64,000 bases of DNA from Deltaproteobacteria bacterium (GTDB lineage: Bacteria; CG2-30-53-67): the NCBI GenBank assembly GCA_013151235.1, contig JAADIO010000032.1, forward strand, positions 2,166-66,165, given 5' to 3'. The position numbers were made by a program, and so were the translations under genes. Each line of letters begins with the position of its first letter. Positions within the stretch are counted from its first letter, which is position 1. Under the pieces are notes generated by a model, which ran no database searches, was not told the origin of the DNA, and saw only the letters and a program-made list of their open reading frames with translations. This document shows positions 24,168-59,585 of the stretch, in pieces.

Positions 24168-24391
24168 GAATTAATATTCCGCCCGGGTAGGGGTTGTGCT
24201 CAAGTTTCCGGGTTGCTGAGCCGATAAGAGAGATACTCAGTCGAAAAATGATGGAAGTCTATAGGAATCTTCACTGGAAATCTACGAAGTCAAGGGATCC
24301 TGCCCTATGGCTTCCGAACTCTTTCGGTTGTGCGGCAGGTCTAATAATCCCGGCTCATGATGGAGCCCGGGAAAATCAACGGAGGTGTACA

Positions 24392-25006: not shown

Positions 25007-25097
25007 TGTGATCGTTTCATGAGGATAAGCTGTTCCTGCTGACCATTGCACCGGGTCCGATTTTTACCATCGGTCACGGGATGAAAGGTTCCTTCTG

Positions 25098-26768: not shown

Positions 26769-26784
26769 TTCCCGGGGACAGGCA

Positions 26785-27984: not shown

Positions 27985-27987
27985 ACG

Positions 27988-29577: not shown

Positions 29578-29581
29578 CCCC

Positions 29582-30677: not shown

Positions 30678-30696
30678 ACACAAAGGAGGAAATCTT

Positions 30697-44232: not shown

Positions 44233-45574
44233 CGACGAAGAACCCTTTCGTCGCCTGCTGAAAAAAGAACTGACCCGGAAAGGGTTTTCCGTTGAGGTGG
44301 CCCCGGAAGGGGAAACGGCGCTGAAACTTTTGAAGGAGAGTGTCTTTGATCTGCTTCTCCTCGATGTTCTGATGCCGGGACTGGACGGAATTTCCGTGAT
44401 GAAACGGCTGCGTAAGGACCCGACGGCGCCGCCGGTGATCGTCTTGACGGGGAAGGCCACGATTGAAACGGCGGTCGAGGCGATGAAGAACGGCGCCTAT
44501 GACTATCTGACGAAACCCTACAAGCTTGATGAGTTGGAAATCGTCATCAACCGAGCCTGTGAATTCGGGAATTTGAAACACAAAAGCCGGGTACTTGAGC
44601 AGGAGCTGGTTCGAAAAGAATCCAAGGTTGAATTTATCGGGGAAAGCCCGCAGTTCCAGGCGATTTTGACGCTGATTCGCAAGATCGCCCCCACCGACTC
44701 CACGGTTCTTATCCAGGGGGAAAGCGGCACCGGCAAGGAGTTGGTGGCGAATGCCATCTGGCATCACAGCCGTCGGAATAATCTGCCTCTTATCGCCCTG
44801 AACTGTGCCACCCTTTCCGAAACCCTCATGGAATCGGAACTTTTCGGACATGAAAAAGGCGCCTTTACCACGGCTTACCGGACCAAGTACGGTATCGTAG
44901 AGGTTGCCGATAAGGGGACCCTCTTCCTGGATGAGGTGGCCGAGATGCCGATGGGACTCCAGGCCAAGCTCCTCCGCTTTCTTGATCGGGGGGAGTTCCG
45001 TCGTGTGGGCGGAAACAAGACCTTGCAGGTCGATGTCCGGATGATTGCTGCGACCAACAAGAATCTGGAGGAACGGGTTCGGCGGAAAACCTTTCGGGAA
45101 GATCTTTTCTATCGCCTCCATGTGATTAATATCAAGATTCCGCCGCTTCGCGAACGTCCGGAGGATATCCGGGACATTGCCCTTCATTTTGCCAAACAAT
45201 ATTCCCGCAAAATAGGAAAGTCGGTCTGGAAGATTGACGCCGATGCCCTGGGGATTCTCCGGCGTTATGCCTGGCCGGGAAATGTTCGGGAGCTGGAAAA
45301 TGAAATCGAGCGGAGTGTGATCCTCTGTGAAGGCGAGGCGATCGGTGTCCACGACCTTTCGATCGCCGATCGGGTTGCAACGCCCACCTCCGGGACGCAG
45401 CCGATGCTGGAGGAGATCGAGAAGGAGTGTATCCTCAGGGTCCTCCGGGAGACCGGCGGCAACCAGACCCGGGCCAGCAAAATCCTCGGCATCAACCGTA
45501 AAACCCTCTACCTAAAACTTCGCAAATACGGTGCACTTACATCGCAGGATAGCGAGATTCCCCCTGAGGTATAG
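44210..45574 (+). CDS. Sigma-54-dependent response regulator (NtrC family enhancer-binding protein)
   Basis: REC domain (ILVVDDEE...LLLDVLMPGLDG...KP). AAA+ domain with GESGTGKE Walker A and a GAFTTA (GAFTGA-type) loop. C-terminal Fis-type HTH (TRASKILGINRKTLYLKLRKYG). Start set at MARILVVDD, overlapping the kinase stop by 23 nt. Confidence 0.9.
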   Translation: MARILVVDDEEPFRRLLKKELTRKGFSVEVAPEGETALKLLKESVFDLLLLDVLMPGLDGISVMKRLRKDPTAPPVIVLTGKATIETAVEAMKNGAYDYLTKPYKLDELEIVINRACEFGNLKHKSRVLEQELVRKESKVEFIGESPQFQAILTLIRKIAPTDSTVLIQGESGTGKELVANAIWHHSRRNNLPLIALNCATLSETLMESELFGHEKGAFTTAYRTKYGIVEVADKGTLFLDEVAEMPMGLQAKLLRFLDRGEFRRVGGNKTLQVDVRMIAATNKNLEERVRRKTFREDLFYRLHVINIKIPPLRERPEDIRDIALHFAKQYSRKIGKSVWKIDADALGILRRYAWPGNVRELENEIERSVILCEGEAIGVHDLSIADRVATPTSGTQPMLEEIEKECILRVLRETGGNQTRASKILGINRKTLYLKLRKYGALTSQDSEIPPEV

Positions 45575-45678: not shown

Positions 45679-45694
45679 TGGCATGGGATTTGCT
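45679..45694 (+). promoter_or_regulatory. Sigma-54 (-24/-12) promoter of the methyltransferase island
   Basis: TGGCATgggatTTGCT. The extended string TTATGGCATnnnATTTGCTGTT is shared with the promoter at 35119. Confidence 0.65.
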
Positions 45695-45707: not shown

Positions 45708-46070
45708 ATGAACGATATCCTTTTATGCTCATCGGATCCGATCTTCATAAAGAATCTCTACGGGATTCTCCGGGAGGACGGTTACCGTGTCGATATTGCC
45801 GGCCATGCGTCTATGGCCGTCCGGATGGTTTTTGAAAAGAGTTTTGCAGCGGTGATCCTCGATTCCGATGCTGTCGGTATGTCTTCGGGGGAGGCTGCAC
45901 GTATCATTTTGAGAGTCATCTCGGGGATCCCTGTAATTCTTGCAGGGGAAAGTCTGTTACCCGAGGGGGCGTTTTCGATCAGCAAACCTCTGGATCTGGA
46001 GGAGGTCCTGGAGGTTCTTCGAACCGTTCGTTTAATTCATTTTCCGGAAAGGAGTGTGAGCGGCCTATGA
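45708..46070 (+). CDS. Stand-alone receiver (REC)-like protein
   Basis: ~120 aa. CheY-like pattern ILLCSSD...AVILDSD...PVILAG...ISKP, including a candidate phospho-acceptor Asp and a K-P pair. Start set at MNDILL because the sigma-54 promoter lies inside the longer track ORF. Confidence 0.45.
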   Translation: MNDILLCSSDPIFIKNLYGILREDGYRVDIAGHASMAVRMVFEKSFAAVILDSDAVGMSSGEAARIILRVISGIPVILAGESLLPEGAFSISKPLDLEEVLEVLRTVRLIHFPERSVSGL

Positions 46071-47098
46071 CACCACGAGAGATTATTTTGCAGGCCTTTG
46101 AAGGGGGGAAGCCCGAGCGGGTGCCGGTTTCTCTCTTCGGTGCCGGCATGTGGAGCATCAAGAGTTTTGAAAGCAGTTTCGAGGAGTTGTCGACCGATGC
46201 AGCGAAGATGTCGGATATGTTGGTGACCCTGTCGGACAAACTGTTGTGTGATATTGTCTATGCCGGCTCCGGGTACAACAACTTTCACGCCGCTGCGTTC
46301 GGCGGGGAGATCAAGTTTCGTTCCATGGGAGCGCCGGATCTGAAGGAACATCTCGTTTCCTCCGTGGAGGACATTGAAAAATTTGATCTATCGGCGCTCG
46401 ACAATGAAGCGACCCTCAATATCGTCAAGGATGCCCTGCATCGTACACGGGAACAGATCGGTGACAAATATGTGGTGAGCATGACGGCCTGGGGACCCTT
46501 TACCCTCGGGGCACGTTTCGTCGGGGAAGAGACGATGATGAAGGCGACCTTCAAGAATCCCGACCTGGTCCACCGGGTCACTGATTTTGCAACGGACCTT
46601 CTGATCCATCTTTATGAACCCCTGGTTGATGACGGGACGCTGGAAGTGATCAGTCTGGCCGATCCGACGGCCTCGGGGGACCTGATTTCCCGCAAGCAGT
46701 TTGAAAAGTTTGCCGTTCCCTACCTGAAAAAGTTTACCGACTGGGCCAGATCGAAGAAGGCGTATACCCTCCTGCACATTTGCGGGAATACGACGGACCG
46801 CCTGGATGTGATGCCCGGGACCGGGGCGAGCTGTATCAGCCTGGATCACAAAACCGATATCGGGAAGGCCTATGAGGCACTCCACGGAAGGATCTGTTTT
46901 GCCGGCAATGTGGATCCTGTCGGTGTCATGCTTCAGGGCTCGGTCGACGATGTGGAGAGGGCCTGCCGGGAGGTGATCGAAAGGGCCGGCACGGAGGGGG
47001 GGTTCGTTCTCATGCCGGGATGCGATATTCCGCCGACCGTCCCTTATGAAAATATTCGGAAATTCATCCAGGTCGCGCGGGAGTGGAAATTGACATAA
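46067..47098 (+). CDS. MtaA/CmuA-type (URO-D fold) methylcobamide methyltransferase, paralogue 1
   Basis: 343 aa. URO-D family pattern with LHICGNT (H-x-C) and MPGCDIPP (C) zinc ligands, as in methylcobamide:CoM methyltransferases. ATGA overlap with the REC gene. Confidence 0.8.
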   Translation: MTPREIILQAFEGGKPERVPVSLFGAGMWSIKSFESSFEELSTDAAKMSDMLVTLSDKLLCDIVYAGSGYNNFHAAAFGGEIKFRSMGAPDLKEHLVSSVEDIEKFDLSALDNEATLNIVKDALHRTREQIGDKYVVSMTAWGPFTLGARFVGEETMMKATFKNPDLVHRVTDFATDLLIHLYEPLVDDGTLEVISLADPTASGDLISRKQFEKFAVPYLKKFTDWARSKKAYTLLHICGNTTDRLDVMPGTGASCISLDHKTDIGKAYEALHGRICFAGNVDPVGVMLQGSVDDVERACREVIERAGTEGGFVLMPGCDIPPTVPYENIRKFIQVAREWKLT

Positions 47099-47251
47099 GG
47101 CGAAGAGGGGGTAGTAAGTCCGTGTTGTTCAGGTCCCATTGACCTTGTGAGAGAGGGGGTTGTGATGGGTACATTCTGGGAAAATCTCAAAAATATGTTT
47201 GTGCGGACTGTTCCTCCGGGAGCAGCCGGGCAATCGCAGAAAGGAGCTGCC

Positions 47252-47698
47252 ATGGCTGACGAAAAGAAGATGACGCTGGAAGAAGTAAATCAGTATATGC
47301 AGGAAAAGTGCGGGTTCGTGCCGAGGATGTTCAAGATTATCAATACCGTGACGCCGGAGCCCGGCCGAACCTTTGCCGATTTCTACGCGAGCATTTTCGG
47401 GGAGGGCGCACTTTCCAAGAGCGTCAAGGAATTGATGTTCATGTCCGGTGGTGTCGCCTACTGTTCGCCTCGCTGCATCATTCATGTCGTACCGGCGATC
47501 AATGCCGGTGCAACGTCGGAACAGGTCTTCGAGGCGGCGTCCGTCGGGATGATCCTGGCCGGTTTTGTCCCGAACGGTCCGGGAATTCCCTATGCCTTTG
47601 AATATGCCTTGAAGTGCATTGACATCGACACGAAGTTCCGGAAGGGCGAGGAGTGGGAATACCTGCCGCCCCCGAAATTTGATCACGGGATTTACTGA
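47252..47698 (+). CDS. Carboxymuconolactone decarboxylase / AhpD-like family protein
   Basis: ~148 aa. KELMFMSGGVAYCSPRCIIHV resembles the AhpD-core Cys/His segment, though the Cys spacing is atypical. The ATG at 47252 lies 5 nt after AAGGAG. Confidence 0.5.
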   Translation: MADEKKMTLEEVNQYMQEKCGFVPRMFKIINTVTPEPGRTFADFYASIFGEGALSKSVKELMFMSGGVAYCSPRCIIHVVPAINAGATSEQVFEAASVGMILAGFVPNGPGIPYAFEYALKCIDIDTKFRKGEEWEYLPPPKFDHGIY

Positions 47699-47775
47699 GC
47701 GCTTCAGCCGCGGGAGGGGGGAATCCCCCCTCTTTTGCCCCCCTCCTGCGGATTTTACCCATTTTTAATTTAAGG

Positions 47776-48747
47776 ATGATACATATGTTCACCTTTGAAA
47801 CGGAACAAAAGGTTTGCAAGATCGGCGGATTAAAGGTTGGAGGCCGACCGGCGGAAAATCCCCCTCTCCTGATTGCCTCCATGTTTCATAACAAGGACCG
47901 AATCCTGCAGGATCGTAAAGGGAATTTCGACCGCGTCCGGGCGACAGAACTGATCCGGAAGCAGGAAGAGCTGACCGAAGCCACCGGCATTCCCGGTATG
48001 GTGGCCATGATGGCCAATTCCGCCGGGGAAGCAAAGATCTATATCGATTTCTTTGTGGAAACCACCGACATGCCCTTCGCCATCGATATGTGGGTTGCCG
48101 AGAAACGGATGGCCGCGACGGAATATGTGGCGAAGTTAGGTCTGCAGGACCGGTTTGTCTATAACAGTATTACCCCCTGGGACAAGGACATTCCGGGGCA
48201 GGTGCAGCGGGTCAAAGAGCTCGGCATCAAACACGTATTTGTCCAGGCCTTTGATGATGCCGATCAGTCTCCGAAAGGACGGCTGACCTCATTGGAAAAA
48301 TTGCTTGATCAGGGAGCGGGTGATTTCGAGTCGGTCCTTGTCGATTCCTCGGTGATGAATCTTCCCGCTGCCTCTTTCTCCATGCTGGCAAACCGGATGA
48401 TCAAAGAGAAGTTAGGGCTCCCCTGCGGAAGCGCCTATTCCAATGGCACCCACATGTGGAAAGAGGCCAAGGAGATCTGGGGGCTCGACGGTTTCAAGGC
48501 GATGGATGCTGTGGCCCAGGGGATGTCGACGGCCCTCTGGTCGGATTTTAATTTTTACGGTCCCATCGTGACGGCGCCCCGGATCTTCCCCGGTGTGGCC
48601 ACGGCAAACATCCTGCTTTCGACCCTGGTCTTTGATGAAACCGGGGAGGTCTCGGAAAATGAAGACCTGCCGATCCGGAAGCACTTTTCGGAATTTCTTG
48701 AGAAGATGATCGCCGGTGGTGCAAGAAAAAAGGCGCAGGCCCGATAA
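47776..48747 (+). CDS. MtrH-like pterin-binding methyltransferase (methylcorrinoid:tetrahydrofolate/H4MPT type)
   Basis: 323 aa. CKIGGLKVGGRPAENPPLLIASMFH...AIDMW...YNSITPW resembles the tetrahydromethanopterin S-methyltransferase subunit H family. Confidence 0.75.
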   Translation: MIHMFTFETEQKVCKIGGLKVGGRPAENPPLLIASMFHNKDRILQDRKGNFDRVRATELIRKQEELTEATGIPGMVAMMANSAGEAKIYIDFFVETTDMPFAIDMWVAEKRMAATEYVAKLGLQDRFVYNSITPWDKDIPGQVQRVKELGIKHVFVQAFDDADQSPKGRLTSLEKLLDQGAGDFESVLVDSSVMNLPAASFSMLANRMIKEKLGLPCGSAYSNGTHMWKEAKEIWGLDGFKAMDAVAQGMSTALWSDFNFYGPIVTAPRIFPGVATANILLSTLVFDETGEVSENEDLPIRKHFSEFLEKMIAGGARKKAQAR

Positions 48748-48780
48748 TCGATAACCCTAATATCAGAAGGAGAAAACGTT

Positions 48781-49803
48781 TTGACGGAAACCATGACATC
48801 AAGAGAACGGGTACTGAGACTGTTTCGGGGGGAACCGACGGATCGTCCGGCCTGTTTCAGCGGGATGGGTAATGCGACAACGGAAGGGCTGAACCAGCTC
48901 GGCTACAAGTTTGCCCAGGTTCATCTCGATGCGAAACAGATGGCGGAGACGGCCATGACGACGCCCCGGCTTTTCGGGTTTGACGCCTGCGTCCTTCCGT
49001 TTGACCTCTGTGTCGAAGCGGAAGCGATGGGCGCAAGGATCAATACCTATTCGAACTCGGACGACCTGCTCTATCCCACGATCAAAGAGAAGGTAATCCA
49101 TGGCGAAGAGGAGATGGAGATCAACCTCCCCTCCGACCTGGTCACGCGCGGGCGGATCCCCCTCATGAAGGAGGCGATCGGGATCGCCAGGGAAACCATC
49201 GGAGAGACCGTGGCGATCGGTTCTTACCTGCTCGGACCGTTTACGCTCGCCGGTCAGATCATGGAACTGAACGATCTGCTGAAACTTTCTTTCAAGAAAC
49301 CGGACAAGGTCGGGAAACTTCTGGCCGATCTGACCTGCGTGATCGTGGCGGTTGCGAAGGAGTATGAAGCGGCCGGTGTTGACTACCTGACGGTACGGGA
49401 GATGGGTGCAACCTCCGACGTGTTGAGCCCCAGGGTTTTCAAGAGCCTGATACTGCCCCATCTCAAGAATATTTTCGAACAGATCAGTGTTCCCAGTGTG
49501 CTGCATATCTGCGGCAAGACGAACAACATCGTCGTTCCGATGGTGGAAACGGGTGCGACGGCCATCAGTGTTGACCAGAAGAATGATGTGGTCGACAGCC
49601 GGAAAAAGCTCGGATCCGATGCCCTGATTTTCGGGAACTACGACCCCTATAACGTGCTTGTTTCGGGTACGCCGGAACTGGTCAAAGAGGCGATGCAAAA
49701 GTGTTTGGAAGACGGCGTCAGTGCCGTCTGGCCCGGCTGTGATATCTGGCCCACGGTGCCGGCGGAGAATTTTAAGGCCATGATGGAAACCATGAATGAA
49801 TAG
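48781..49803 (+). CDS. MtaA/CmuA-type (URO-D fold) methylcobamide methyltransferase, paralogue 2
   Basis: 340 aa. RERVLRLFRGEPTDRPA N-terminus, with VLHICGKT (H-x-C) and WPGCDIWP (C) zinc ligands. TTG start after AAGGAGAA, or the ATG at 48793. Confidence 0.8.
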   Translation: MTETMTSRERVLRLFRGEPTDRPACFSGMGNATTEGLNQLGYKFAQVHLDAKQMAETAMTTPRLFGFDACVLPFDLCVEAEAMGARINTYSNSDDLLYPTIKEKVIHGEEEMEINLPSDLVTRGRIPLMKEAIGIARETIGETVAIGSYLLGPFTLAGQIMELNDLLKLSFKKPDKVGKLLADLTCVIVAVAKEYEAAGVDYLTVREMGATSDVLSPRVFKSLILPHLKNIFEQISVPSVLHICGKTNNIVVPMVETGATAISVDQKNDVVDSRKKLGSDALIFGNYDPYNVLVSGTPELVKEAMQKCLEDGVSAVWPGCDIWPTVPAENFKAMMETMNE

Positions 49804-49817
49804 TCAGGAGGCATGGA

Positions 49818-50513
49818 ATGGCAACTGAAGAGAGAACCCGGGAAATCCTGGAGAAAATGGAGAAAGCCGTGATTGAGTATGACGAAGATGCGGCCAAGGA
49901 GGGTGCCCAGGCGGCCCTCGATGAAGGGGTCAATCCCAATGATGCCATCTTCGACGGTCTGGTCAGCGGGATGCAGGAAGTCGGCAAGCTCTTTGAGGCC
50001 GAAGAGTATTTCGTCCCGGAGCTGCTCATGTGCGCCGATGCCCTTTATGCCGGTCTCGATATCTTAAAACCCCATGTGAAACAGCTCGACCTGGGGGTGA
50101 AAGGCTCGGTGGTGATCGGTACCGTGGAGGGAGATGTTCACGATATCGGGAAGAACATCGTGAAGATGATGTTCGATGTCGCCGGGTTTGAGGTCCATGA
50201 CCTGGGACGGGATGTGCCGCTGGATCAGTTTGTTGAGGAACAGATCAAAACCGATTCCGAACTGGTCTGCCTCTCCGCCATGATGACGACGACCATGATG
50301 GGGATGCAGAAGGTCATCGAGGACCTGAAGAAGAAGAATCCCGATATCAAGATCATGATCGGCGGTGCTCCCGTTTCCGGTGATATCGCCGAGAAATGGG
50401 GAGCGGACGGCTATGCCGATGACGCGACCAATGCCCTCGCAGATGCCATCAACATGGTCAGCTCTCTGAAAAAGATGAAGGAAGAAGCGGAAGCCAGGGA
50501 AAAACGGAAGTGA
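49818..50513 (+). CDS. Corrinoid (B12-binding) protein, MtaC/MtbC/MttC-like
   Basis: 231 aa. N-terminal helical cap domain, then a Rossmann B12 domain with GTVEGDVHDIGKN (DxHxxG), SAMMTTT (SxL-type) and IGGAPV (GG). Confidence 0.9.
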   Translation: MATEERTREILEKMEKAVIEYDEDAAKEGAQAALDEGVNPNDAIFDGLVSGMQEVGKLFEAEEYFVPELLMCADALYAGLDILKPHVKQLDLGVKGSVVIGTVEGDVHDIGKNIVKMMFDVAGFEVHDLGRDVPLDQFVEEQIKTDSELVCLSAMMTTTMMGMQKVIEDLKKKNPDIKIMIGGAPVSGDIAEKWGADGYADDATNALADAINMVSSLKKMKEEAEAREKRK

Positions 50514-51175
50514 GCAGTGCATTCTTGAAAAAGATGCTCCTCGGTTCCGGGGCGACCGTGGTGGGTGTGGCGGAACTGGATGCGTATCTTGACGGAGAGA
50601 TCCGTCATCTCAACCGAGGGGTTTCCATCGCGGTGGACCGGACGCTTCGGGAAGATACCCTGAAACATCTGGGCCGGCTGCAGAAAAAAGTGGTCCGCTA
50701 TCTGAAAGGGAAGGGATTCCGTACCCTCAGTATCCCCCCTGATTCGGACCGCATCCGGAATAAGTTTGTTGCCGAACTTTATTCCCTTTTGACCCACAAG
50801 ATGGCAGCCACCTGCGCGGGGATCGGCTGGATCGGGCGGAATGGGTTACTGATCAGTCCCCATTTCGGGCCGCGGCTTTCCCTGGCGACGGTCCTGACCG
50901 ATGCGCCCCTGAAGAGCGATATTCCCTATGAACAGAGCCGTTGCGGCAATTGCCGGCTTTGTGTTGACTACTGCCCGTCGAAGGCGATCACGGGCAAAAC
51001 CTGGTCCCGGCGGGACCCTTACAGCGGCCTGGTCAAGCCCCACCGGTGTCGTGTACACAAAGAGGGGGCCCGGGGAGTGACGGATCGGCCCAATTGCGGT
51101 CTCTGCCTGCAGATCTGCCCCTACGGGCGGGCGAAAGGGAGGACCAAACCGAAAGATGTTATGGAGATTGTATAA
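50510..51175 (+). CDS. QueG/RdhA-like 2x[4Fe-4S] ferredoxin-domain protein
   Basis: 221 aa. GWIGRNGLLISPHFGPRLSLATVLTDAPL is an epoxyqueuosine-reductase-like core. Two cluster motifs are present, CGNCRLCVDYCP and CGLCLQICP. 4-nt overlap with the corrinoid protein gene. Confidence 0.6.
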   Translation: MSSAFLKKMLLGSGATVVGVAELDAYLDGEIRHLNRGVSIAVDRTLREDTLKHLGRLQKKVVRYLKGKGFRTLSIPPDSDRIRNKFVAELYSLLTHKMAATCAGIGWIGRNGLLISPHFGPRLSLATVLTDAPLKSDIPYEQSRCGNCRLCVDYCPSKAITGKTWSRRDPYSGLVKPHRCRVHKEGARGVTDRPNCGLCLQICPYGRAKGRTKPKDVMEIV

Positions 51176-51177
51176 AG

Positions 51178-53154
51178 ATGAGCAGCAAATATAAAGTGAA
51201 TTTTCAGCCCTCGGGAAGTCGGGGGGAAGTGGATGCAGGGAAAACCCTCCTTGATGCGGCCCAGCGTTTAGGGGTTGATCTGGAATCAGTCTGTGGCGGC
51301 AAGGGGACCTGCGGGAAATGCAAGGTCCGTGTTGAGGAAGGATATTTTGAAAAAGATGCCATGGAATCAAGAATGTCCCATCTGTCTCCTCTGACGGACG
51401 TGGAACGCAAATTCATCAAACCGGAAGACGGACCCCGAATGCGTTTGGCCTGTGCCGCCGAGGTGCGGGGGGATGTGAAACTTTTCGTGCCGGAAAAGTC
51501 CCGTGCCGGGAAACAGATCGTTCGCAAGGCCGCAAAAGATATTACGATCGCCCTCGACCCCGCCGTGAAAAAATATTGTATCCGGCTGGATGCCCCGACC
51601 CTGCACGATCTTTCCAAGGGGGATCTTGAACGGATTCTGGGGGCGCTGAAAATGGAGTACAACCTGGAAAACCTTGCCATAGACTATCTGGTCCTCCAGA
51701 AGCTCCAGGATATTCTTCGGGCCGGGAACTGGGAGGTGACGGTTTCGGTCTGGAAAGGCAAAGAGATCATCAAGGTGGAGCCGGATTTTGTGGACGTCTC
51801 CTACGGTCTGGCCGTGGATGTCGGGACGACGACGGTGGCAGCCTATCTGTGTGATCTGAACACGGGCAAGGTGCTTAACACCGAATCGATGATGAATCCC
51901 CAGGTCCCGTACGGCGAAGATGTCATGTCGAGGATTACTTACGCCATGACCCATGACGACGGTCTTGCGATCATGCAGAAGGCAATCATCGAGGGCTTAA
52001 ACGATCTGATTGAGAAGATTACCGCCGACATCCGTTCCAACGGAACGCCCGGCGGTACCTCCATCGTCGATATGACGGTGGTTTTTAATACCGCCATGCA
52101 TCACATCTTCCTGGGATTCAACCCGGTCTACATCGGACGGTCTCCCTTTATTCCTGCCGTGCAGGATTGTGTTGATCTCAAGGCACGGGATCTGGGACTT
52201 CAAATCAATGAAGCTTCCTACATTCATGTCCTTCCCATTGAGGCCGGTTTTGTCGGCGCCGACAATGTGGGGGTTCTCATCGCCGAAGAGCCGTACAATT
52301 CCGAGGACAATGTCCTGATTATCGACATCGGGACGAACGGTGAACTCCTCCTCGGGAACAAGCATGCGGTCTGTTCCACTTCCTGCGCTACGGGACCGGC
52401 CTTTGAAGGGGCCCAGATCAAGTTCGGAATGCGAGCCGCCCCGGGAGCGATTGAAAAGGTCCGGATCGATCCGGAGACGAAAGAGCCACAGTACAAGGTG
52501 ATCGGCAAGGCCGACTGGCATACCCATATCAAGGATGTCAATGCCAAGGGGATCTGCGGTTCCGCCATCATCGACGTGATTGCCGAGATGTTCAAGGCGG
52601 GAGTCATCGACAAGTCCGGGAAATTCGTCAAGGATCTTGACATACCCCGCATCCGGAAGGATGCCGACGGCAAACCGGAGTACGTCCTGGCCTGGGCGGA
52701 TGAAACCTCCATCGGGAGCGACATCACCGTGACGCAGGGGGATGTCCGGGCGTTGCAGCTCGCCAAGGGGGCACTCTACGCCGGGGCGAAACTGATGATG
52801 CAGAAGATGGGGATCGAAAAACTCGACCGGGTGGTTCTGGCGGGGGCCTTCGGGAGTCATATCAATACGGAGGCCTCGATGACCCTCGGGATGTTCCCCG
52901 ATTGTGCCATCGAAAAGGTCTATGCCGTGGGGAATGCCGCCGGCGACGGGGCGATCATGGCCCTGCTGAACCTGGGGAAACGACGTGAGGCCGGCGAAAA
53001 GGCCCGGTGGGTCCGGTTCCTGGAGATTGCCGTGGAGCCGGAATTTGAAAAGGAATTCATGAAGGCGATGCATATTCCGCACATGAAGGATCCTTTTCCC
53101 AATCTCAAGTCGTTGCTGGAGAAGGACCATTTGCCGGTGACGATCAAGGGGTGA
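51178..53154 (+). CDS. Reductive activator of corrinoid proteins (RACo / ASKHA-fold, N-terminal [2Fe-2S] ferredoxin)
   Basis: 658 aa from MSSKYKVNF. Plant-type ferredoxin motif CGGKGTCGKCKV...C, then a large ASKHA ATPase region (GLAVDVGTTTVAAYL, IIDIGTNGE). Start moved from 51046 to the ATG at 51178, 2 nt after the upstream stop. Confidence 0.85.
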   Translation: MSSKYKVNFQPSGSRGEVDAGKTLLDAAQRLGVDLESVCGGKGTCGKCKVRVEEGYFEKDAMESRMSHLSPLTDVERKFIKPEDGPRMRLACAAEVRGDVKLFVPEKSRAGKQIVRKAAKDITIALDPAVKKYCIRLDAPTLHDLSKGDLERILGALKMEYNLENLAIDYLVLQKLQDILRAGNWEVTVSVWKGKEIIKVEPDFVDVSYGLAVDVGTTTVAAYLCDLNTGKVLNTESMMNPQVPYGEDVMSRITYAMTHDDGLAIMQKAIIEGLNDLIEKITADIRSNGTPGGTSIVDMTVVFNTAMHHIFLGFNPVYIGRSPFIPAVQDCVDLKARDLGLQINEASYIHVLPIEAGFVGADNVGVLIAEEPYNSEDNVLIIDIGTNGELLLGNKHAVCSTSCATGPAFEGAQIKFGMRAAPGAIEKVRIDPETKEPQYKVIGKADWHTHIKDVNAKGICGSAIIDVIAEMFKAGVIDKSGKFVKDLDIPRIRKDADGKPEYVLAWADETSIGSDITVTQGDVRALQLAKGALYAGAKLMMQKMGIEKLDRVVLAGAFGSHINTEASMTLGMFPDCAIEKVYAVGNAAGDGAIMALLNLGKRREAGEKARWVRFLEIAVEPEFEKEFMKAMHIPHMKDPFPNLKSLLEKDHLPVTIKG

Positions 53155-53164
53155 GACGTCGAAA

Positions 53165-53482
53165 ATGACCCGTGTGAAAATCGACCCGGGCGTCTGTGGT
53201 TTTCCCGCTCTCGTGACGGTCGAAAAAAAGGACAGGCAGCACTTTCGGGTAACGATCGAGTCCAATTGTGAAATGGTACGGAAATTGGGAGAGGAAATTG
53301 CATCCCTGACGATGCAGGATGCCTTCATCCGGTTTTCCGATAACCGGGTCTATGAGAAGGCCTCAACCTGTCTGAAACACACGGCCTGTCCGGTCCCGTC
53401 GGGCATCCTGAAGGCCCTGGAGGTTGAGGCCGGTCTGGCGGTGCCGCGGAACGTAACGGTGGAATTTCTTGCCGGGGAGTGA
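53165..53482 (+). CDS. Small conserved-Cys hypothetical protein
   Basis: 105 aa with four Cys (C11, C35, C69, C75). Translationally coupled to the next gene by a 4-nt overlap. Confidence 0.4.
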   Translation: MTRVKIDPGVCGFPALVTVEKKDRQHFRVTIESNCEMVRKLGEEIASLTMQDAFIRFSDNRVYEKASTCLKHTACPVPSGILKALEVEAGLAVPRNVTVEFLAGE

Positions 53483-54744
53483 CAGTGATGAGCGACTATC
53501 TTCTGCATTGCCGGAAATGCGGTGCTCTTTTGCAGCCGCAAGAGTCCGCTTCCGGGGTTCATTGTCCCGATGCCTTGATGAAAAGTGAATTTCCCGACCG
53601 GCGGTTCCGCCTTGAGGGGCGTCGGGGGATCTGGCGCTTCAACTGGCTTCCGGTGCATGCACCCCGTGAAGATACCGCCGCACCGGTGGTTTATCACGCG
53701 GAGGGGCTGGGGCGGCGTCTTGGACTTCGGCATCTCTTTGTCGTATTCAACGGTTTCCGGCCGGAAAAGGGGGCGGAGATCGAGACCTGTACCTTCAAAG
53801 AGTTCGAGGCCGAGGTTGTTCTGCAAAACGCACGGGAACTTGGAAAGGGCGGCCTCGTCGTCGCCTCGGCGGGGAATACCGCCCGCGCCTTTGCCCACCT
53901 TTCGATTCGGACCGATTTCCCCGTGTTCATTGTGGTTCCACGCATGTGTCTTCATGAGATGTGGTTTCTGAAGTCGAAGGAGTCCGTTCCGACGGCTGTC
54001 CTGCAGGACGGTGACTATGCCGACGCCATCGATGTGGCCGAGCGGATCGCCCGGATTTCAGGTATTCCCTTCGAAGGAGGGGTACGCAATTCGGCCAAGC
54101 GGGACGGACTCGGTGTCGTACTGATGGAAGCGGTCTCCTTCCTCGGCCGCCTGCCCGATGCCTATTTTCAGGCAGTCGGGAGCGGCGCCGGGGCGGTGGC
54201 CACCTGGGAGATGGCGGAACGGTTTTTGCGGGACGGCCGTTTCGGGAACCGGCTTCCCCGTCTCCACCTGGCACAGAATCTCCCCTTTGCACCCATGTTT
54301 CATGCCTGGAGACGGGGGGAACGGAATCTGAAACCTGAGGACCTTGATCCGGGCCTGATTGAGAAGATTTCCACCCGGGTTCTGTCCAGTCGTTATCCCG
54401 CCTATTCGATTCTGGGGGGGGTCTACGATGCCTTGACGGCATCCGGGGGGAACATGTACGGGATTACCAACGGAGGGATGGCCGAGGCCCGGACGCTCTT
54501 CGAAGAAACGGAAGGGGTCGATATCGTTCCCGCGTCGGCCATTGCCCTGGCGGCACTGAAAGAGGCCGTAGCGGCGGAAGAGGTCTCTCCCGACGAGCTG
54601 ATCCTGCTCAATATCACCGGGGGTGGGGAAAGGGCCATCCGGCGTGCGGGACGTGCCGTCCCGGTGGCGGGAGACGCAATCTCGAAAAATATTACGGATG
54701 ATGAAATCGAAGAACTTTTATGCACAGTCCTGAAAAAGAGCTGA
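53479..54744 (+). CDS. Threonine-synthase-fold PLP enzyme, cysteate synthase-like
   Basis: 421 aa. N-terminal Cys ribbon (HCRKCG...HCPD), TFKEFEA (PLP-Lys region), ASAGNTARAF and LNITGGG. Its size, ribbon and pairing with ComDE mirror archaeal cysteate synthase. I cannot exclude a different beta-replacement specificity. Confidence 0.55.
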   Translation: MTVMSDYLLHCRKCGALLQPQESASGVHCPDALMKSEFPDRRFRLEGRRGIWRFNWLPVHAPREDTAAPVVYHAEGLGRRLGLRHLFVVFNGFRPEKGAEIETCTFKEFEAEVVLQNARELGKGGLVVASAGNTARAFAHLSIRTDFPVFIVVPRMCLHEMWFLKSKESVPTAVLQDGDYADAIDVAERIARISGIPFEGGVRNSAKRDGLGVVLMEAVSFLGRLPDAYFQAVGSGAGAVATWEMAERFLRDGRFGNRLPRLHLAQNLPFAPMFHAWRRGERNLKPEDLDPGLIEKISTRVLSSRYPAYSILGGVYDALTASGGNMYGITNGGMAEARTLFEETEGVDIVPASAIALAALKEAVAAEEVSPDELILLNITGGGERAIRRAGRAVPVAGDAISKNITDDEIEELLCTVLKKS

Positions 54745-55856
54745 TTTCGATTCTGAAAGGGGCGGGCGTCGATCTTCTAGCGACCCTTCCCTGTGACCGG
54801 GTGCGCAACCTGATCGCCCTTGCGGATGCATCGATTGACCGCATCCCTCTGACCCGGGAAGAAGACGGCGTCGGGATTTGTGCCGGAGCGGCCCTGGGCG
54901 GGCGGCGGCCGGCCATGATTGTTCAAAGCTCCGGGATCGGCAATATGATCAACGCCCTTCTCTCCCTGACCGGATTCTATGAACTTCCCTTGGCACTTTT
55001 CGTCAGTCAGCGGGGAGTCTATAAGGAGGGGATCGACGCCCAGGTTCCGATGGGCAAGGTCCTGCCGGGGCTTTTTGAATCCGTGGGGATCGGTTACACT
55101 CTGATCGACCGGTCCGAAGCGATCCCCGCCATCGGGAAGGAACTGGAGTCTCTCTACCGGGAGAAACGGATCCATGCTTTCCTGCTCAGCCCGGCCCTCT
55201 GGGAAGGCTCCCCCCTGGAGATTTCCCAGAGCCTCAAACGCCGCCATTGTGAAGCGATCGATCCTGAACGGGGTCGGGAGAATCCGGCCCCGGTCCTGAC
55301 CCGCTATGGGGTCCTTTCGACCCTCTGTCCCGAACTGGAAGGGCAGGCGGTGATCTGCAATCTGGGGGTCCCGTCGAAGGAACTTCATGCCCTCCTTCCC
55401 CAACCATCGAATTTCTACATGCTGGGCAGCATGGGATTGGCGACGCCCATCGGTCTCGGTGTGGCCTTCTCAACGGACAAACCGGTTTTCGTCATTGACG
55501 GGGACGGCAGTCTGCTTATGAATCCCGGGACCCTGGCGACGGTCGCCATGGCCCGACCGGGGAACCTGACCATTATTGCTGTTGACAATGCCTCCTACGG
55601 TTCCACGGGGGATCAACCGACCCTGACGGCCGGTTGTGTCGATCTGGAACTGGTGGCCCGTGGATTCGGTATCTGTAACTCTGTGAAGGCTGCGTCCCGG
55701 GAGGAGCTGCGGGAGGCGTTGCAGACCCCCTTCGGCGGTGCCCTCTTTGTCCATGCCCTTGCCCTGCCCGGAAATGCCGCCGTCCCCAATATCCCCCTGG
55801 GTGCCCGGGAGATCAAGGAGGGGTTCCAGGCGTTCCTGGAATCCGGGAGGTTATAG
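54720..55856 (+). CDS. comDE: Fused sulfopyruvate decarboxylase alpha+beta (ComD-ComE), ThDP-dependent
   Basis: 378 aa. The N-half DLLATLPCDRV...TREEDGVGICAGAALGGRRPAMIVQSSGIGNMINALLSL closely matches the ComD pattern. The C-half GSMGLATPIGLGVA...VIDGDGSLLMNPG...NASYGSTG carries the ThDP motif and matches ComE. The homologous phosphonopyruvate decarboxylase is the alternative assignment. Confidence 0.7.
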   Translation: MHSPEKELISILKGAGVDLLATLPCDRVRNLIALADASIDRIPLTREEDGVGICAGAALGGRRPAMIVQSSGIGNMINALLSLTGFYELPLALFVSQRGVYKEGIDAQVPMGKVLPGLFESVGIGYTLIDRSEAIPAIGKELESLYREKRIHAFLLSPALWEGSPLEISQSLKRRHCEAIDPERGRENPAPVLTRYGVLSTLCPELEGQAVICNLGVPSKELHALLPQPSNFYMLGSMGLATPIGLGVAFSTDKPVFVIDGDGSLLMNPGTLATVAMARPGNLTIIAVDNASYGSTGDQPTLTAGCVDLELVARGFGICNSVKAASREELREALQTPFGGALFVHALALPGNAAVPNIPLGAREIKEGFQAFLESGRL

Positions 55857-58762: not shown

Positions 58763-58820
58763 GATGTCCCTTTTTATCCACAGAACCGGTCGGTGAATCT
58801 CTGACCTCGAAGATTCGGCC

Positions 58821-58985
58821 GCTCATTTCCAGGCAGGTCTTCTGACTCTCGGTTCGTCCTACTTACCGTGTCTTCCCATCGTATTTCCCGACAGTGACAT
58901 CTTTCGGTTTTCGTCCCCGATCACAGCGGCGGGCCCGTCCCCGTTTTTACGGGATTCCCTTCTCAGCTCCTCATGGAAGCACCTG
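58821..58985 (-). promoter_or_regulatory. Cobalamin (B12) riboswitch aptamer
   Basis: The minus-strand RNA contains AAGGGAAUCCCGUAAAAACGGGGACGGGCCCGCCGCUGUGA, ...CACUGUCGGGAA...GAUGGGAAG..., and a canonical B12 box AGUCAGAAGACCUGCC (58832-58847). Confidence 0.9.
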
Positions 58986-58996
58986 AAAATATCCGA

Positions 58997-59025
58997 ACTT
59001 TACTTGAAAAACCCTGCAGAGTCAA
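58997..59025 (-). promoter_or_regulatory. Sigma-70-type promoter candidate for the riboswitch-btuFCD transcript
   Basis: Minus strand TTGACT, a 17-nt spacer, then TAAAGT. The predicted start lies just upstream of the aptamer 5' end. Confidence 0.5.
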
Positions 59026-59077: not shown

Positions 59078-59106
59078 TTGACAAATCGAAAGGATCTCTC
59101 TATAGT
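59078..59106 (+). promoter_or_regulatory. Sigma-70-type promoter candidate for hsp20 (copy 1)
   Basis: TTGACA, a 17-nt spacer, then TATAGT. It lies ~40 nt upstream of the ATG at 59145. Confidence 0.6.
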
Positions 59107-59144: not shown

Positions 59145-59585
59145 ATGGCAATCCGACGTTGGGATCCCTTCCAGGATTTTTCCTTGACCCAGGAACGGCT
59201 GAACCACTTCTTTGATGATTCGGTCTATTCGGCGTCGGGTCTGGAGACGGAGAAAAGCTGTGTTTTTATGCCGGCCGTCGATATCTTGGAGACGGGCAAG
59301 GATATTATTCTCCGGGTTGAACTTCCCGGCGTGAGAAAAGAGGATATTGATATTCAGATTGATGGAGAGGTTCTCCACTTACGGGGGGAAAGAAAATTCA
59401 TCCGGGAGACGGGCCGGGAGAAATATTACCGTATGGAATGCTCCTACGGTTCCTTCCAGCGGGCGTTTACTCTTCCACAGAGTATCGTCAAGGAGGAAGT
59501 CCAGGCCCAGTTTGATAAAGGGGTCCTGGAGATCACTTTGCCCATAGAAAAAAAAGAAAAGACCATTCAGGTGGAAGTGGAATAG
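59145..59585 (+). CDS. Small heat-shock protein (Hsp20/alpha-crystallin family)
   Basis: 146 aa. WDPFQDF N-terminus and an alpha-crystallin domain (PAVDILETGKDIILRVELPGV...GVLEITLP). Confidence 0.9.
   Translation: MAIRRWDPFQDFSLTQERLNHFFDDSVYSASGLETEKSCVFMPAVDILETGKDIILRVELPGVRKEDIDIQIDGEVLHLRGERKFIRETGREKYYRMECSYGSFQRAFTLPQSIVKEEVQAQFDKGVLEITLPIEKKEKTIQVEVE

Follow-up and report, generated by a model that had tools for sequence, protein, structure and literature searches.

In the Methanosarcinales and relatives, the class II (phosphoserine-dependent) route to coenzyme M (CoM) is encoded by a cluster of cs, comDE and MMP16/ComF, in this order (MA3297-MA3299; PMC11844431). In Xanthobacter Py2, the genes for CoM synthesis lie beside those of the CoM-dependent pathway and are regulated together with them (PMC9457059). 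Type 1 mlp clusters of non-methanogens are defined by at least Mlp2 and Mlp3 orthologues, a corrinoid protein and Ram/RACE (PMC10418091). Sulfide, selenide and methionine-related thiols, without CoM, were proposed as substrates of the MtaA-like proteins in these bacterial clusters (PMC10418091). Neither cysteate, sulfopyruvate, comDE, MtrH nor any term beginning with Nitrospir appears in that study, and we found no published description of a bacterial cluster that combines cysteate synthase (CS) and ComDE with corrinoid methyltransferases.

Here, we analysed a bacterial locus of this kind in a 64-kb window (the whole stretch of DNA under study, 64,000 nucleotides). The original prediction had drawn attention to a CS-like gene ending at 54744 and a fused comDE gene starting at 54720, a pairing known from Methanosarcina and placed here in a bacterial context. 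Both open reading frames were found as described, in different frames and overlapping by 25 nt (54720-54744), and the pairing in Methanosarcina is documented as MA3297/MA3298 (PMC11844431). The bacterial context was confirmed by a sigma-54 activator and by AsmA, PilZ, exosortase and BtuFCD in the window. CS-ComDE form the 3′ end of an operon (45708-55856) whose genes all lie on the forward strand with short gaps or overlaps. This place at the end of a corrinoid S-methyltransferase operon had not been part of the earlier reading of the pair. The features of the region are as follows:

41680..44232, + strand: PAS/GAF sensor histidine kinase (Pfam PAS_9, GAF twice, PAS_4, HisKA, HATPase_c)
44147..45574, + strand: sigma-54-dependent response regulator, NtrC/AtoC type (Response_reg, Sigma54_activat, HTH_8)
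45679..45694, + strand: predicted sigma-54 promoter TGGCAT-N5-TTGCT (GG-N10-GC), read from the sequence
45708..46067, + strand: small protein resembling a receiver domain (Response_reg, weak match with E 3e-4), opening the operon
46067..47098, + strand: UROD1, MtaA/CmuA-family (URO-D fold) corrinoid methyltransferase (PF01208, 208 bits)
47147..47698, + strand: AhpD/CMD-like protein (PF02627, E 3e-5)
47776..48747, + strand: MtrH-family methyl-corrinoid:pterin methyltransferase (NF002142, 333.7 bits vs cutoff 287; PF02007)
48781..49803, + strand: UROD2, MtaA-like methylcobamide:thiol (CoM-type) methyltransferase (NF004889 and TIGR01463 over cutoff)
49818..50513, + strand: corrinoid (B12-binding) methyl-carrier protein (B12-binding_2 and B12-binding; TIGR02370, 211.6 bits)
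50510..51175, + strand: QueG/reductive-dehalogenase-like protein with two [4Fe-4S] motifs (Fer4_16)
51178..53154, + strand: RACo/AcsV-type reductive activase of the corrinoid protein (Fer2, RACo_linker, Raco_middle, RACo_C_ter)
53165..53482, + strand: DUF6951, small Cys/His-rich protein (PF22263, 113 bits)
53479..54744, + strand: CS, GTG start as listed (421 aa), likely ATG at 53488 (418 aa)
54720..55856, + strand: ComDE, fused ThDP-dependent sulfopyruvate decarboxylase (EC 4.1.1.79), ATG start, 378 aa
55892..58690, - strand: BtuD, BtuC and BtuF, vitamin B12 ABC importer (NCBIfam matches to corrinoid/B12 transporter components)
58815..59001, - strand: cobalamin riboswitch upstream of btuFCD (Rfam RF00174, 104.7 bits vs gathering score 31.5)

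The operon is predicted to be under sigma-54 control. The promoter motif lies directly 3′ of the sigma-54 activator gene and recurs at the same relative place, 387-409 nt 5′ of UROD1, in loci L001, L029 and L044, against a background rate of 0.009 per kb for the pattern. The response regulator probably starts near 44231 (homologues have 447 aa), and the PAS/GAF histidine kinase is the presumed sensor for the operon; a histidine kinase-response regulator pair adjoins the cluster, 5′ or 3′, in many loci. The small receiver-like gene is likewise kept at the operon start in many loci. On the other side, btuFCD run convergently towards the operon, probably controlled by the RF00174 riboswitch, with a terminator-like hairpin and T-run (58762-58737, - strand) between aptamer and btuF.

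The start of CS is likely the ATG at 53488, given a GGGGAG Shine-Dalgarno sequence about 11 nt 5′ and a resulting length of 418 aa that equals that of the closest homologues. According to profile matches, CS has the threonine-synthase fold. All 59 sequences compared share its PLP lysine, K107 of TCTFKE, and homologues also keep the phosphate/PLP loops ASAGNTARA and GSGAG. The N-terminal Cys ribbon of the original prediction held in modified form: it comprises three cysteines and a histidine instead of four cysteines, with C11-x2-C14 invariant in 59 homologues and H28-C29 at least 80% conserved. The product of the second gene fits the expected fusion of ComD and ComE. Residues 5-161 match the ComD (alpha) model TIGR03845 with 179.2 bits (cutoff 147.95). 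The ComE (beta) model TIGR03846 stays 15 bits under its cutoff (206.2 vs 221.5) and is the best model for its region, covering model positions 1-179 of 182 (E 4e-61). The ThDP motif GDGSLLMN...AVDN (GDG-X25-(D/N)N) and the REE motif (catalytic Glu, PYR domain) are kept in 56 ComDE sequences. Both reading frames are intact and full length compared with homologues, with catalytic motifs retained.

The identity of the two enzymes can be weighed by their scores. CS surpasses the cutoff of TIGR03844 (cysteate synthase equivalog, EC 2.5.1.76) by 124 bits (448.7 vs 324.9), matches the solved 'Cysteate synthase' 9k3c with 301 bits (E 1e-88) and is 46% identical to the CS of Methanoperedens, in line with the original identification. 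The threonine synthase fold would also suit a threonine synthase paralogue, or an enzyme for phosphoserine beta-replacement with a sulfur nucleophile other than sulfite, e.g., a protein thiocarboxylate. CysM uses the protein thiocarboxylate of CysO, and ThiF-JAB-ThiS-like systems feed CysM-type enzymes; such genes come after CS-ComDE in the Rokubacteria locus L047. We nevertheless regard a PLP enzyme of this kind as very improbable, since CS falls at least 235 bits under every threonine synthase cutoff (best model 68.9 bits, cutoff 303), scores at most 52 bits against solved threonine synthases, i.e., about sixfold less than against the solved cysteate synthase, and is in all cases accompanied by ComDE, which takes a cysteate-derived substrate. 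By family, CS is best assigned as a genuine cysteate synthase, predicted to form L-cysteate and phosphate from O-phospho-L-serine and sulfite. For ComDE, the end-to-end match to the phosphonopyruvate decarboxylase (Ppd) model TIGR03297 and the label 'putative phosphonopyruvate decarboxylase' on the only solved relatives could point to a Ppd and to a role of the pair in phosphonate biosynthesis. This is hardly credible, considering that the Ppd model reaches 191 bits, far under its cutoff of 312.5, compared with 385 bits for the ComD and ComE models summed. The solved subunits score merely 68 and 57 bits, whereas the fused ComDE adjoining CS in a Methanoperedens MAG scores 337 bits with 46% identity over the full length; a grouping with Ppd, raised as a concern in the original prediction, was thus not seen by scores. 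In addition, no PEP mutase was found in the 64-kb window, the genes conserved in the cluster across ~140 loci include none, and the partner gene encodes a cysteate synthase, not a phosphonate enzyme. ComDE fits ComD plus ComE rather than Ppd and is predicted to be a sulfopyruvate decarboxylase.

The neighbouring methyltransferases belong to the URO-D superfamily, in which a His-Cys-Cys zinc site marks S/Se-methyltransferases and not O-demethylases (PMC10418091). Given that these residues are kept in all UROD1 and UROD2 homologues, both proteins are likely of the S/Se-methyltransferase type. UROD2 lies over the cutoffs of NF004889 'methylcobalamin:coenzyme M methyltransferase' (256.4 vs 244 bits) and TIGR01463 (238.6 vs 235.4 bits), and among solved structures M. 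mazei MtaA comes closest to it (4ay7, 157 bits). Aligned with 4ay7, its zinc ligands comprise H-x-C, Asp for Glu and a distal C; H242, C244 and C320 are invariant in 16 homologues. Equivalog matches were not reached by UROD2 (242 vs 400 bits for MtaA_Meth, 171 vs 600 bits for MtbA) or by UROD1 (146 and 150 bits for MtaA and MtbA, respectively). UROD1, 27% identical to UROD2, stays under the TIGR01463 cutoff (176.5 vs 235.4 bits) and scores 100 bits against 4ay7; its motif LHICG...PGCDI is kept in 22 homologues. UROD2 can be placed in the MtaA/CmuA family, with a CoM-type thiol as predicted substrate.

Among the accessory proteins, the pterin of the MtrH-family enzyme is probably tetrahydrofolate; an MTHFR gene lies nearby in the close relative L065. 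The AhpD-like protein is the most conserved of the cluster, with ~83-85% identity to Nitrospirota versions over its C-terminal 143 aa. Its motif Y-C-S-P-R-C-I-I-H is kept in 95 loci with an in-frame stop in none, and no selenocysteine signal was found in the cluster. The QueG-like protein partially matches TIGR00276 (QueG) and TIGR02486 (RDH), its Cys motifs being kept in 40 homologues. The RACo reading frame, listed from 51046, likely starts at 51178, which gives 658 aa (homologues 657-658 aa). DUF6951 is specific to the CS-ComDE/methyltransferase cluster (219 family members among 5.8 billion proteins) and conserves C11, C35, H72 and C75; a fold comparison with its AF2 model (pLDDT 85.7) returned no significant match.

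The cluster occurs in well over 100 loci, mostly from Nitrospirota MAGs, and the association of its genes is near-obligate. Of the bacterial genome loci anchored on CS, 42 extend at least 8 kb upstream, and UROD2, the corrinoid protein and RACo are present in 40 of them. Conversely, of the metagenome loci anchored on UROD2, 24 reach far enough downstream, and 23 of these close with CS and ComDE. The overlap of the two genes is exactly 25 nt in 35 and 28 nt in 40 of 75 homologous bacterial loci; with only these two lengths, it is not due to chance. CS and ComDE, the last two genes of the operon, would be translationally coupled. Recent transfer from archaea is argued against by an identity of only 41-46% to the archaeal versions of CS/ComDE and by a host-like GC content.

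Genes next to the pair provide further hints at its product. In the archaeal loci L056 and L058, COG1900 and a ferredoxin (ComF/MMP16 type) lie directly 5′ of CS. ThiF, JAB and a GG-ended ThiS/MoaD-like carrier adjoin CS-ComDE in L047, as do DsrM-like and HdrD/TfrB-like genes in most Nitrospirota loci; the latter pair is absent from the window and from the closest relatives L002/L004, L065 and L066. Sulfur-transfer or thiol-redox genes thus adjoin CS-ComDE in three independent lineages, which implies a thiol product. Only one methyltransferase cluster, L136, has no CS-ComDE in view. There, a secreted SsuA/NMT1-type binding protein, a permease and an ATPase are encoded directly 3′ of DUF6951; a sulfonate-type importer in place of CS-ComDE suggests that the cluster needs a sulfonate. 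Cytoplasmic SsuA-family-like genes lie 3′ in L002, L006, L052, L061 and L065. In M. acetivorans, CoM starvation co-induces ssuA/C, cs with comDE, and a heterodisulfide reductase (PMC12068725).

Together, these observations point to a pathway in which L-cysteate produced by CS would be converted to 3-sulfopyruvate by a housekeeping aminotransferase encoded outside the window; in agreement with the original prediction, which missed a dedicated gene for this step, profile searches of the reading frames found no aminotransferase gene in the window. ComDE would decarboxylate 3-sulfopyruvate to sulfoacetaldehyde, and reductive thiolation would yield 2-mercaptoethanesulfonate (CoM) or a very similar sulfonate thiol. 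The original prediction had listed CoM, taurine, isethionate and sulfoacetate as possible outlets of sulfoacetaldehyde. The first is now favoured and the list of four narrowed, since CS-ComDE are conserved as the 3′ terminus of the corrinoid S-methyltransferase operon; the CoM-type chemistry is suggested by the NF004889 score of UROD2 and by its relatedness to MtaA. The CoM-like thiol would act as substrate or methyl carrier of UROD1 and UROD2, which, with the corrinoid protein, the MtrH-like enzyme and RACo, would shuttle methyl groups among a methyl-sulfur compound, CoM and tetrahydrofolate, with both the donor and the direction of flow presumed. We give a somewhat better than even probability (about 0.55) to this reading, i.e., that CS-ComDE make sulfoacetaldehyde for CoM as the thiol methyl carrier of a sigma-54-controlled corrinoid S-methyltransferase operon. 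If so, pair and operon suggest that these bacteria produce and employ a cofactor known mainly from methanogenic archaea.

It is doubtful, while still deserving serious attention, that sulfoacetaldehyde is instead turned into another sulfonate (taurine, isethionate or sulfoacetate) as osmolyte, sulfur store or building block, with the methyltransferases forming a generic mlp-like pathway for a non-CoM thiol such as sulfide, methanethiol or homocysteine. The MtaA homologues of bacterial type 1 mlp clusters are proposed to be CoM-independent, and a bacterial cysteate synthase in a deep-subsurface study was read as possible anaerobic taurine synthesis (PMC12019592). The cluster also lacks a CoM synthase, as COG1900 (PF01837)/MMP16 was found neither in the 64-kb window nor within ~10 kb of any bacterial locus examined. 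Such a gap appears tolerable, considering that an MMP16 deletion mutant of M. acetivorans grows without added CoM if sulfide is present, and that, under reducing conditions, CoM arises abiotically from sulfoacetaldehyde and sulfide (PMC11844431). Moreover, all conserved cluster genes are accounted for, with no taurine aminotransferase, sulfoacetaldehyde reductase/dehydrogenase or Xsc among them. A pathway for an osmolyte, if unrelated to the operon, would hardly remain at its 3′ end in nearly all anchored loci with a fixed overlap, and the sulfur-transfer and thiol-redox neighbours argue for a thiol. Improbable, in our view, is that CoM is made but serves mainly as a protective or reducing low-molecular-weight thiol, e.g., keeping the oxygen- and oxidant-sensitive corrinoid/zinc system reduced. 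Overexpression of comDE is reported to protect methanogens from oxidative stress (PMC12713407), and the cluster encodes an AhpD-like protein with C-x3-C and, in most cases, a disulfide reductase of DsrM/HdrD-like type. However, true methylcobamide:CoM methyltransferases are the nearest relatives of UROD2, which retains their thiol-activating zinc site, and substrate-type sigma-54 control within one catabolic operon would be unexpected for a general redox buffer. No CoM-consuming enzyme (Mcr, epoxyalkane:CoM transferase) was seen at the loci examined.

With CoM as the preferred product, the locus can be set against the described systems. CS and the fused ComDE have homologues in the Methanosarcinales cluster, where they are likewise neighbours with the same gene order (PMC11844431), and neither system has a dedicated aminotransferase (PMC9457059). 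Unlike that stand-alone biosynthetic cluster, the pair lies here within a methyltransferase operon of a bacterial host, with a 25/28-nt gene overlap and no adjacent COG1900/MMP16. In Xanthobacter autotrophicus Py2, the cofactor biosynthesis genes xcbA-E likewise lie beside those of the pathway depending on CoM and are regulated jointly with them (PMC9457059). Their route is entirely different, starting from PEP with ComA-like XcbB and proceeding through aspartase/fumarase-family enzymes and a PLP desulfhydrase-like enzyme, and its role is in the aerobic metabolism of alkenes and epoxides instead of corrinoid methyl transfer. Among the window reading frames scanned, none belongs to the Xcb-type families (ComA-like XcbB, aspartase/fumarase-family XcbC, XcbD).

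The methyltransferase part resembles two further groups of bacterial systems and those of the methanogens. Type 1 mlp clusters (Firmicutes and others; Kountz & Balskus, PMC10418091) also combine MtaA-like His-Cys-Cys URO-D proteins, a corrinoid protein and a RACo-type activase in non-methanogens; the likeness is one of architecture (two MtaA-like proteins, corrinoid protein, RACo), with S-methyl chemistry inferred. In contrast to the operon described here, which conserves an MtrH-family gene, they are without an H4folate methylase, are found chiefly in Firmicutes, show a correlation with selenium traits and have not been reported with CoM biosynthesis genes. CS-ComDE, DUF6951, the AhpD-like protein, usually DsrM/HdrD-like proteins, strict synteny and the lack of a selenocysteine signal set the present cluster apart. 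The mec cassette (MecA-J) of anaerobic dichloromethane catabolism is similar by gene content, with regulator-linked MtaA/CmuA-family and MtrH-family methyltransferases, a corrinoid protein and RACo, but has a PocR histidine kinase regulator and Firmicutes hosts and no CS-ComDE, DUF6951 or HdrD-like genes. Like the soluble CoM methyltransferase systems of methylotrophic methanogens (MtaA/MtbA/MtsA with corrinoid proteins) and the Mtr complex, the operon combines a zinc enzyme of the MtaA family and a corrinoid protein with a pterin methyltransferase of the MtrH family and an ATP-dependent reductive activase. It differs in that UROD2 stays far under the MtaA/MtbA equivalog cutoffs, that MtaB/MtmB/MttB-type substrate methyltransferases and Mcr are absent, and that all components are soluble and encoded in one bacterial operon. 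By analogy, its enzymes could link methyl-CoM to methyl-pterin, as Mtr does.

The cysteate synthase (CS) and fused sulfopyruvate decarboxylase (ComDE) genes are the last two of a sigma-54-driven operon of corrinoid S-methyltransferase genes (45708-55856, plus strand). This bacterial operon is widespread and seemingly undescribed, and the CS-ComDE pair is its conserved final module. All genes from the upstream histidine kinase to ComDE lie on the plus strand, with short gaps or overlaps between them.

Operon, its regulatory elements and the B12 importer locus (window positions)
41680-44232, plus strand: PAS/GAF histidine kinase, upstream of the operon
ending at 45574, plus strand: sigma-54 response regulator
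45679-45694, plus strand: near-consensus sigma-54 promoter, TGGCAT-N5-TTGCT, immediately 3' of the sigma-54 activator gene, ahead of the first ORF of the operon
45708-46067, plus strand: small receiver-like ORF, first of the operon
46067-47098, plus strand: UROD1, MtaA/CmuA-family methyltransferase
47147-47698, plus strand: AhpD/CMD-like protein
47776-48747, plus strand: MtrH-family methyltransferase
48781-49803, plus strand: UROD2, second MtaA-like methyltransferase
49818-50513, plus strand: corrinoid protein
50510-51175, plus strand: QueG/RDH-like 2x[4Fe-4S] protein
51178-53154, plus strand: RACo reductive activase
53165-53482, plus strand: DUF6951, followed by CS and ComDE
53479-54744, plus strand: CS, 421 aa from GTG; likelier start ATG 53488, giving 418 aa
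54720-55856, plus strand: ComDE, 378 aa from ATG
downstream of the operon and convergent, minus strand: btuFCD B12 importer, controlled by a cobalamin riboswitch
58762-58737, minus strand: terminator-like stem-loop with T-run, 3' of the riboswitch and before btuF
58815-59001, minus strand: cobalamin riboswitch (Rfam RF00174, 104.7 bits), directly upstream of btuF

The original prediction of a cysteate-synthase-like PLP enzyme followed by a fused ComDE is sound, as judged by curated model scores, solved structures and archaeal counterparts. CS scored 448.7 bits against TIGR03844, the curated cysteate synthase equivalog (cutoff 324.9), whereas all threonine synthase models gave 69 bits or less. 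Its best solved-structure match, 9k3c (deposited as cysteate synthase), reached 301 bits, compared with at most 52 bits for threonine synthases. Across 59 CS homologues the PLP lysine K107 (in TCTFKE) and the loops ASAGNTARA and GSGAG are kept, together with an N-terminal motif of C11-x2-C14 (invariant) and H28-C29. For ComDE, residues 5-161 exceeded the ComD cutoff (179 versus 148 bits), residues 195-371 fell 15 bits short of the ComE cutoff (206 versus 221.5 bits), and the catalytic REE and thiamine-diphosphate GDG...DN motifs are conserved. In a Methanoperedens MAG, CS and ComDE likewise lie side by side, and each shares 46% full-length identity with its counterpart in the window.

In the ORF calls of the window, CS and ComDE share the claimed 25 nt in different frames. 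The overlap is kept in 75 homologous bacterial loci, at exactly 25 nt in 35 and at 28 nt in 40 of them; because of this conservation, it fits the translational coupling that it had been taken to imply. ATG 53488 is the likelier CS start, since it is preceded by GGGGAG and the resulting 418 aa match the length of the nearest homologues.

The sigma-54 motif occurs at an equal relative position in three homologous loci (L001, L029, L044); the background rate of the pattern is only 0.009 per kb. Searches for internal sigma-70 promoters and terminators in the operon returned only weak, uninformative consensus matches within genes. As btuF is directly preceded by a riboswitch and then a terminator-like stem-loop, expression of the B12 importer appears to be under transcription attenuation. 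The bacterial setting of CS-ComDE was borne out: a misbinned archaeal contig was rejected, as the cluster is flanked by bacterial genes and its homologues lie on bacterial contigs of up to a 2.25-Mb chromosome. There is likewise no sign of recent transfer from archaea, given that GC in the operon (0.55-0.61) is in line with that of its surroundings in the window and that archaeal genes are no more than 41-46% identical.

More than 3,800 relatives of CS were found at E <= 1e-30. In the species-representative genome collection, 61 CS loci were detected, nearly all in Nitrospirota MAGs; the other hosts were Rokubacteria, a Thermoleophilia MAG, a Dissulfurispiraceae MAG and one genome labelled Betaproteobacteria. 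Identity to the CS of the window was 57-78% in these loci, but only 43-46% in archaea and 41% in a Streptomyces locus. Synteny by tblastn revealed a shared order of small REC, UROD1, AhpD-like, MtrH, UROD2, corrinoid protein, Fer4, RACo, DUF6951, [DsrM-like, HdrD-like], CS and ComDE. Where bacterial genome loci extended 8 kb or more upstream of CS (42 loci), UROD2, the corrinoid protein and RACo were present in 40. Conversely, metagenome contigs anchored on UROD2 (the best 80 of 338 relatives were fetched) ended with CS and ComDE in 23 of the 24 loci having enough downstream sequence. Of the bracketed pair, one protein is a DsrM-like membrane cytochrome b; the other bears two CCG motifs and has TfrB, DsrK and HdrD as its closest matches. 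The pair lies between DUF6951 and CS in most loci (e.g., L001 8138-10004 and L006 8114-10004). It is absent from the window and the other loci of its clade (L002/L004, L065, L066) and also from L019 and L029.

With only 219 members among 5.8 billion proteins, DUF6951 is practically cluster-specific; that of the window is 100% identical to GXP58_06155 [Deltaproteobacteria bacterium], which makes a MAG of this label the very probable source of the window. The AhpD-like protein is the most conserved cluster member, its C-terminal 143 aa being ~83-85% identical between the window and Nitrospirota, compared with ~60% for CS. Its motif Y-C-S-P-R-C-I-I-H contains a C-x3-C instead of the usual AhpD C-x2-C. 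A selenium link, raised by weak matches to selenoprotein-associated families, was rejected, as YCSPRCIIH was found in 95 loci and never with an in-frame stop, and no selenocysteine signal was detected across them. Fold searches on DUF6951 were negative.

Other genomic contexts of the two modules were informative about their partners. In two archaeal loci (L056, L058), one gene lies directly upstream of CS and encodes a COG1900 (PF01837) + ferredoxin protein; this is the CoM synthase of the MMP16/ComF type, whose role has been reported (PMC11844431). ComF takes the slot of the DsrM/HdrD-like pair in archaeal loci. In a Rokubacteria locus (L047, 3133-4218 and 8512-12700), CS-ComDE precedes genes for ThiF, a JAB peptidase and a ThiS/MoaD-like protein of 92 aa that ends AIAGG-HG. 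A small sulfite-reductase-like gene lies upstream, and methyltransferase genes are absent. The ThiF, JAB and ThiS/MoaD-like genes make up a complete predicted protein-thiocarboxylate sulfur-donor system, and the locus may represent a separate bacterial way of making a sulfonate thiol, dependent on a sulfur carrier.

L136 is the sole methyltransferase cluster without CS-ComDE in view, on a contig that ends soon after the importer genes. Here (4881-7402), DUF6951 is followed by an SsuA/NMT1-type binding protein with signal peptide, a permease and an ABC ATPase, with an MCP gene thereafter. Because a sulfonate-type importer occupies the usual position of CS-ComDE, this suggests import of the sulfonate instead of its synthesis. 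SsuA-family-like genes (84-93 bits, below cutoff) also occur in five loci, each paired with a gene for a ~200-aa protein without family match.

SsuA-family-like genes convergent downstream of ComDE (positions within each locus)
L065 13944-14903, minus strand
L006 13101-14045, minus strand
L052 3581-4570, minus strand
L061 8748-9842, minus strand
L002 9351-10310, minus strand

The encoded proteins are 51-66% identical among four of the five loci, and those of L065, L006 and L052 have no signal peptide; they may be cytoplasmic sulfonate binders or sensors. Together, the contexts in three unrelated lineages tie CS-ComDE to sulfur insertion or thiol redox, and the methyltransferase cluster to a sulfonate. 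Akin to this, CoM starvation of M. acetivorans co-induces ssuA/C, cs with comDE, and heterodisulfide reductase (PMC12068725), the same three gene classes as around the bacterial cluster.

The Streptomyces locus (Streptomyces sp. NBC_00083, L062) harbors its CS homologue at 10001-11221 without adjacent ComDE and among very large ORFs (1,300-1,800 aa), which suggests a natural-product cluster using a cysteate-synthase-like enzyme. The remainder of the window contains the following features, as well as PilZ, GH57 and AsmA genes.

Other features of the window
14-24129, minus strand: exopolysaccharide locus with exosortase EpsH, DUF3485 (EpsI-like), several glycosyltransferases, asparagine synthase and carbamoyltransferase; also a radical SAM/SPASM protein, FemAB-like acyltransferases and an O-antigen-ligase-like protein
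24194-33248, plus strand: type II secretion/type IV pilus-like set (pseudopilin, GspE-like ATPase, GspF, PilM-like, secretin, TPR protein), adjoining the exosortase locus
33557-34150, plus strand: PEP-CTERM protein
59078-59106, plus strand: near-consensus sigma-70 promoter, TTGACA-17-TATAGT (11/12 matches), ~40 nt upstream of hsp20
59145-59585: hsp20, then dnaK and a dnaJ-like gene

In the pathway that we propose, CS would form cysteate from O-phosphoserine and sulfite, an aminotransferase of the general aspartate type would yield sulfopyruvate as in methanogens, and ComDE would decarboxylate this to sulfoacetaldehyde. No aminotransferase gene was found in the 64-kb window, in agreement with the earlier observation that a dedicated one is missing there; methanogens have no dedicated gene for this step either (PMC9457059). 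Sulfoacetaldehyde could then yield CoM through reductive thiolation. The window contains no COG1900 gene, and candidates for this step would be, in clusters that have it, the DsrM/HdrD-like module, or else the AhpD-like, DUF6951 or QueG-like proteins, COG1900/L-ASST encoded elsewhere, or an uncatalysed reaction with sulfide. Abiotic thiolation is documented, and an MMP16 deletion mutant of M. acetivorans supplied with sulfide grew without CoM (PMC11844431).

On the side of the user enzymes, UROD2 scored above the cutoff of the 'methylcobalamin:coenzyme M methyltransferase' subfamily, and its best solved relative is MtaA, whose zinc ligands are kept. UROD1 has the same His-Cys-Cys site, which separates S/Se-methyltransferases from O-demethylases (PMC10418091). 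With its single corrinoid protein, single activase and MtrH-family enzyme, the operon could let the corrinoid accept a methyl group from a putative methyl-sulfur donor and hand it on to CoM, tetrahydrofolate or both. The neighbours of a close relative's cluster (L065, 15415-20942), namely a large multihaem cytochrome c, MTHFR, a radical SAM protein and a CobA/BtuR adenosyltransferase, are consistent with a connection to corrinoid metabolism and to the metabolism of folate-bound C1 units. We propose tentatively, at a probability of roughly 40%, that Nitrospirota and some neighbours (the source MAG, labelled 'Deltaproteobacteria', and Rokubacteria) make CoM via the archaeal phosphoserine route and use it as methyl carrier in a soluble B12-dependent methyl-S:CoM:tetrahydrofolate pathway, a counterpart of methanogen MtaA/Mtr. 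In most lineages, CoM would be recycled by a membrane DsrM/HdrD-like disulfide reductase, and its sulfur would be inserted without ComF.

The foremost alternative, which we consider unlikely, is that the product is a sulfonate other than CoM and that the methyltransferases use other thiols. A bacterial cysteate synthase in a MAG has been mentioned once, in passing, and read as possible taurine synthesis (PMC12019592). Next in likelihood, and improbable in our judgement, CoM would serve as a redox-protective thiol and not as methyl carrier. It is very improbable that the PLP enzyme uses a non-sulfite nucleophile or is a threonine synthase paralogue, the threonine synthase matches being so far below those to cysteate synthase. 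Least credible is phosphonate biosynthesis: the phosphonopyruvate decarboxylase (Ppd) model gave ComDE 191 bits, far under its cutoff of 312.5, solved 'putative phosphonopyruvate decarboxylase' subunits matched with only 68 and 57 bits, and PEP mutase is absent from the window, so that this reading was rejected.

Among archaea, CoM is considered a cofactor of methanogens and alkane oxidisers; among bacteria, it is assigned to a few aerobic alkene oxidisers, which make it by a route unrelated to the archaeal one. Here, archaeal-type biosynthetic genes are fixed at the end of a corrinoid S-methyltransferase operon in dozens of anaerobic species common in soils, sediments and groundwater. If their product is CoM, its known distribution and roles widen, bacterial homologues of methanogen CoM methyltransferases gain a concrete substrate, and both an uncharacterised route of methyl-sulfur turnover in anoxic settings and ComF-independent CoM synthesis are indicated. 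Should CoM indeed be the methyl carrier as proposed, this would be a third, previously unrecognised role and distribution of the cofactor, in widespread soil and groundwater anaerobes.

Literature searches on CS, ComDE and CoM with Nitrospirae/Nitrospirota, Thermodesulfovibrionia, MtaA and MtrH yielded no account of this cluster. In its methyltransferase genes, it is similar to the type 1 mlp clusters (Kountz & Balskus, PMC10418091). Unlike these, it includes MtrH and CoM-type genes, keeps a strict gene order and occurs in Nitrospirota; cysteate, sulfopyruvate, comDE, MtrH and Nitrospirae are not mentioned in that paper. With the mec cassette it has in common only the generic MtaA/MtrH/corrinoid/RACo architecture. 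The CS-ComDE pair is like that of the class II CoM route of Methanosarcinales, whereas ComF is lacking in the bacterial cluster. The known bacterial CoM pathway, Xcb, employs different enzymes but follows the same logic, with synthesis of the cofactor encoded beside the pathway that uses it (PMC9457059).
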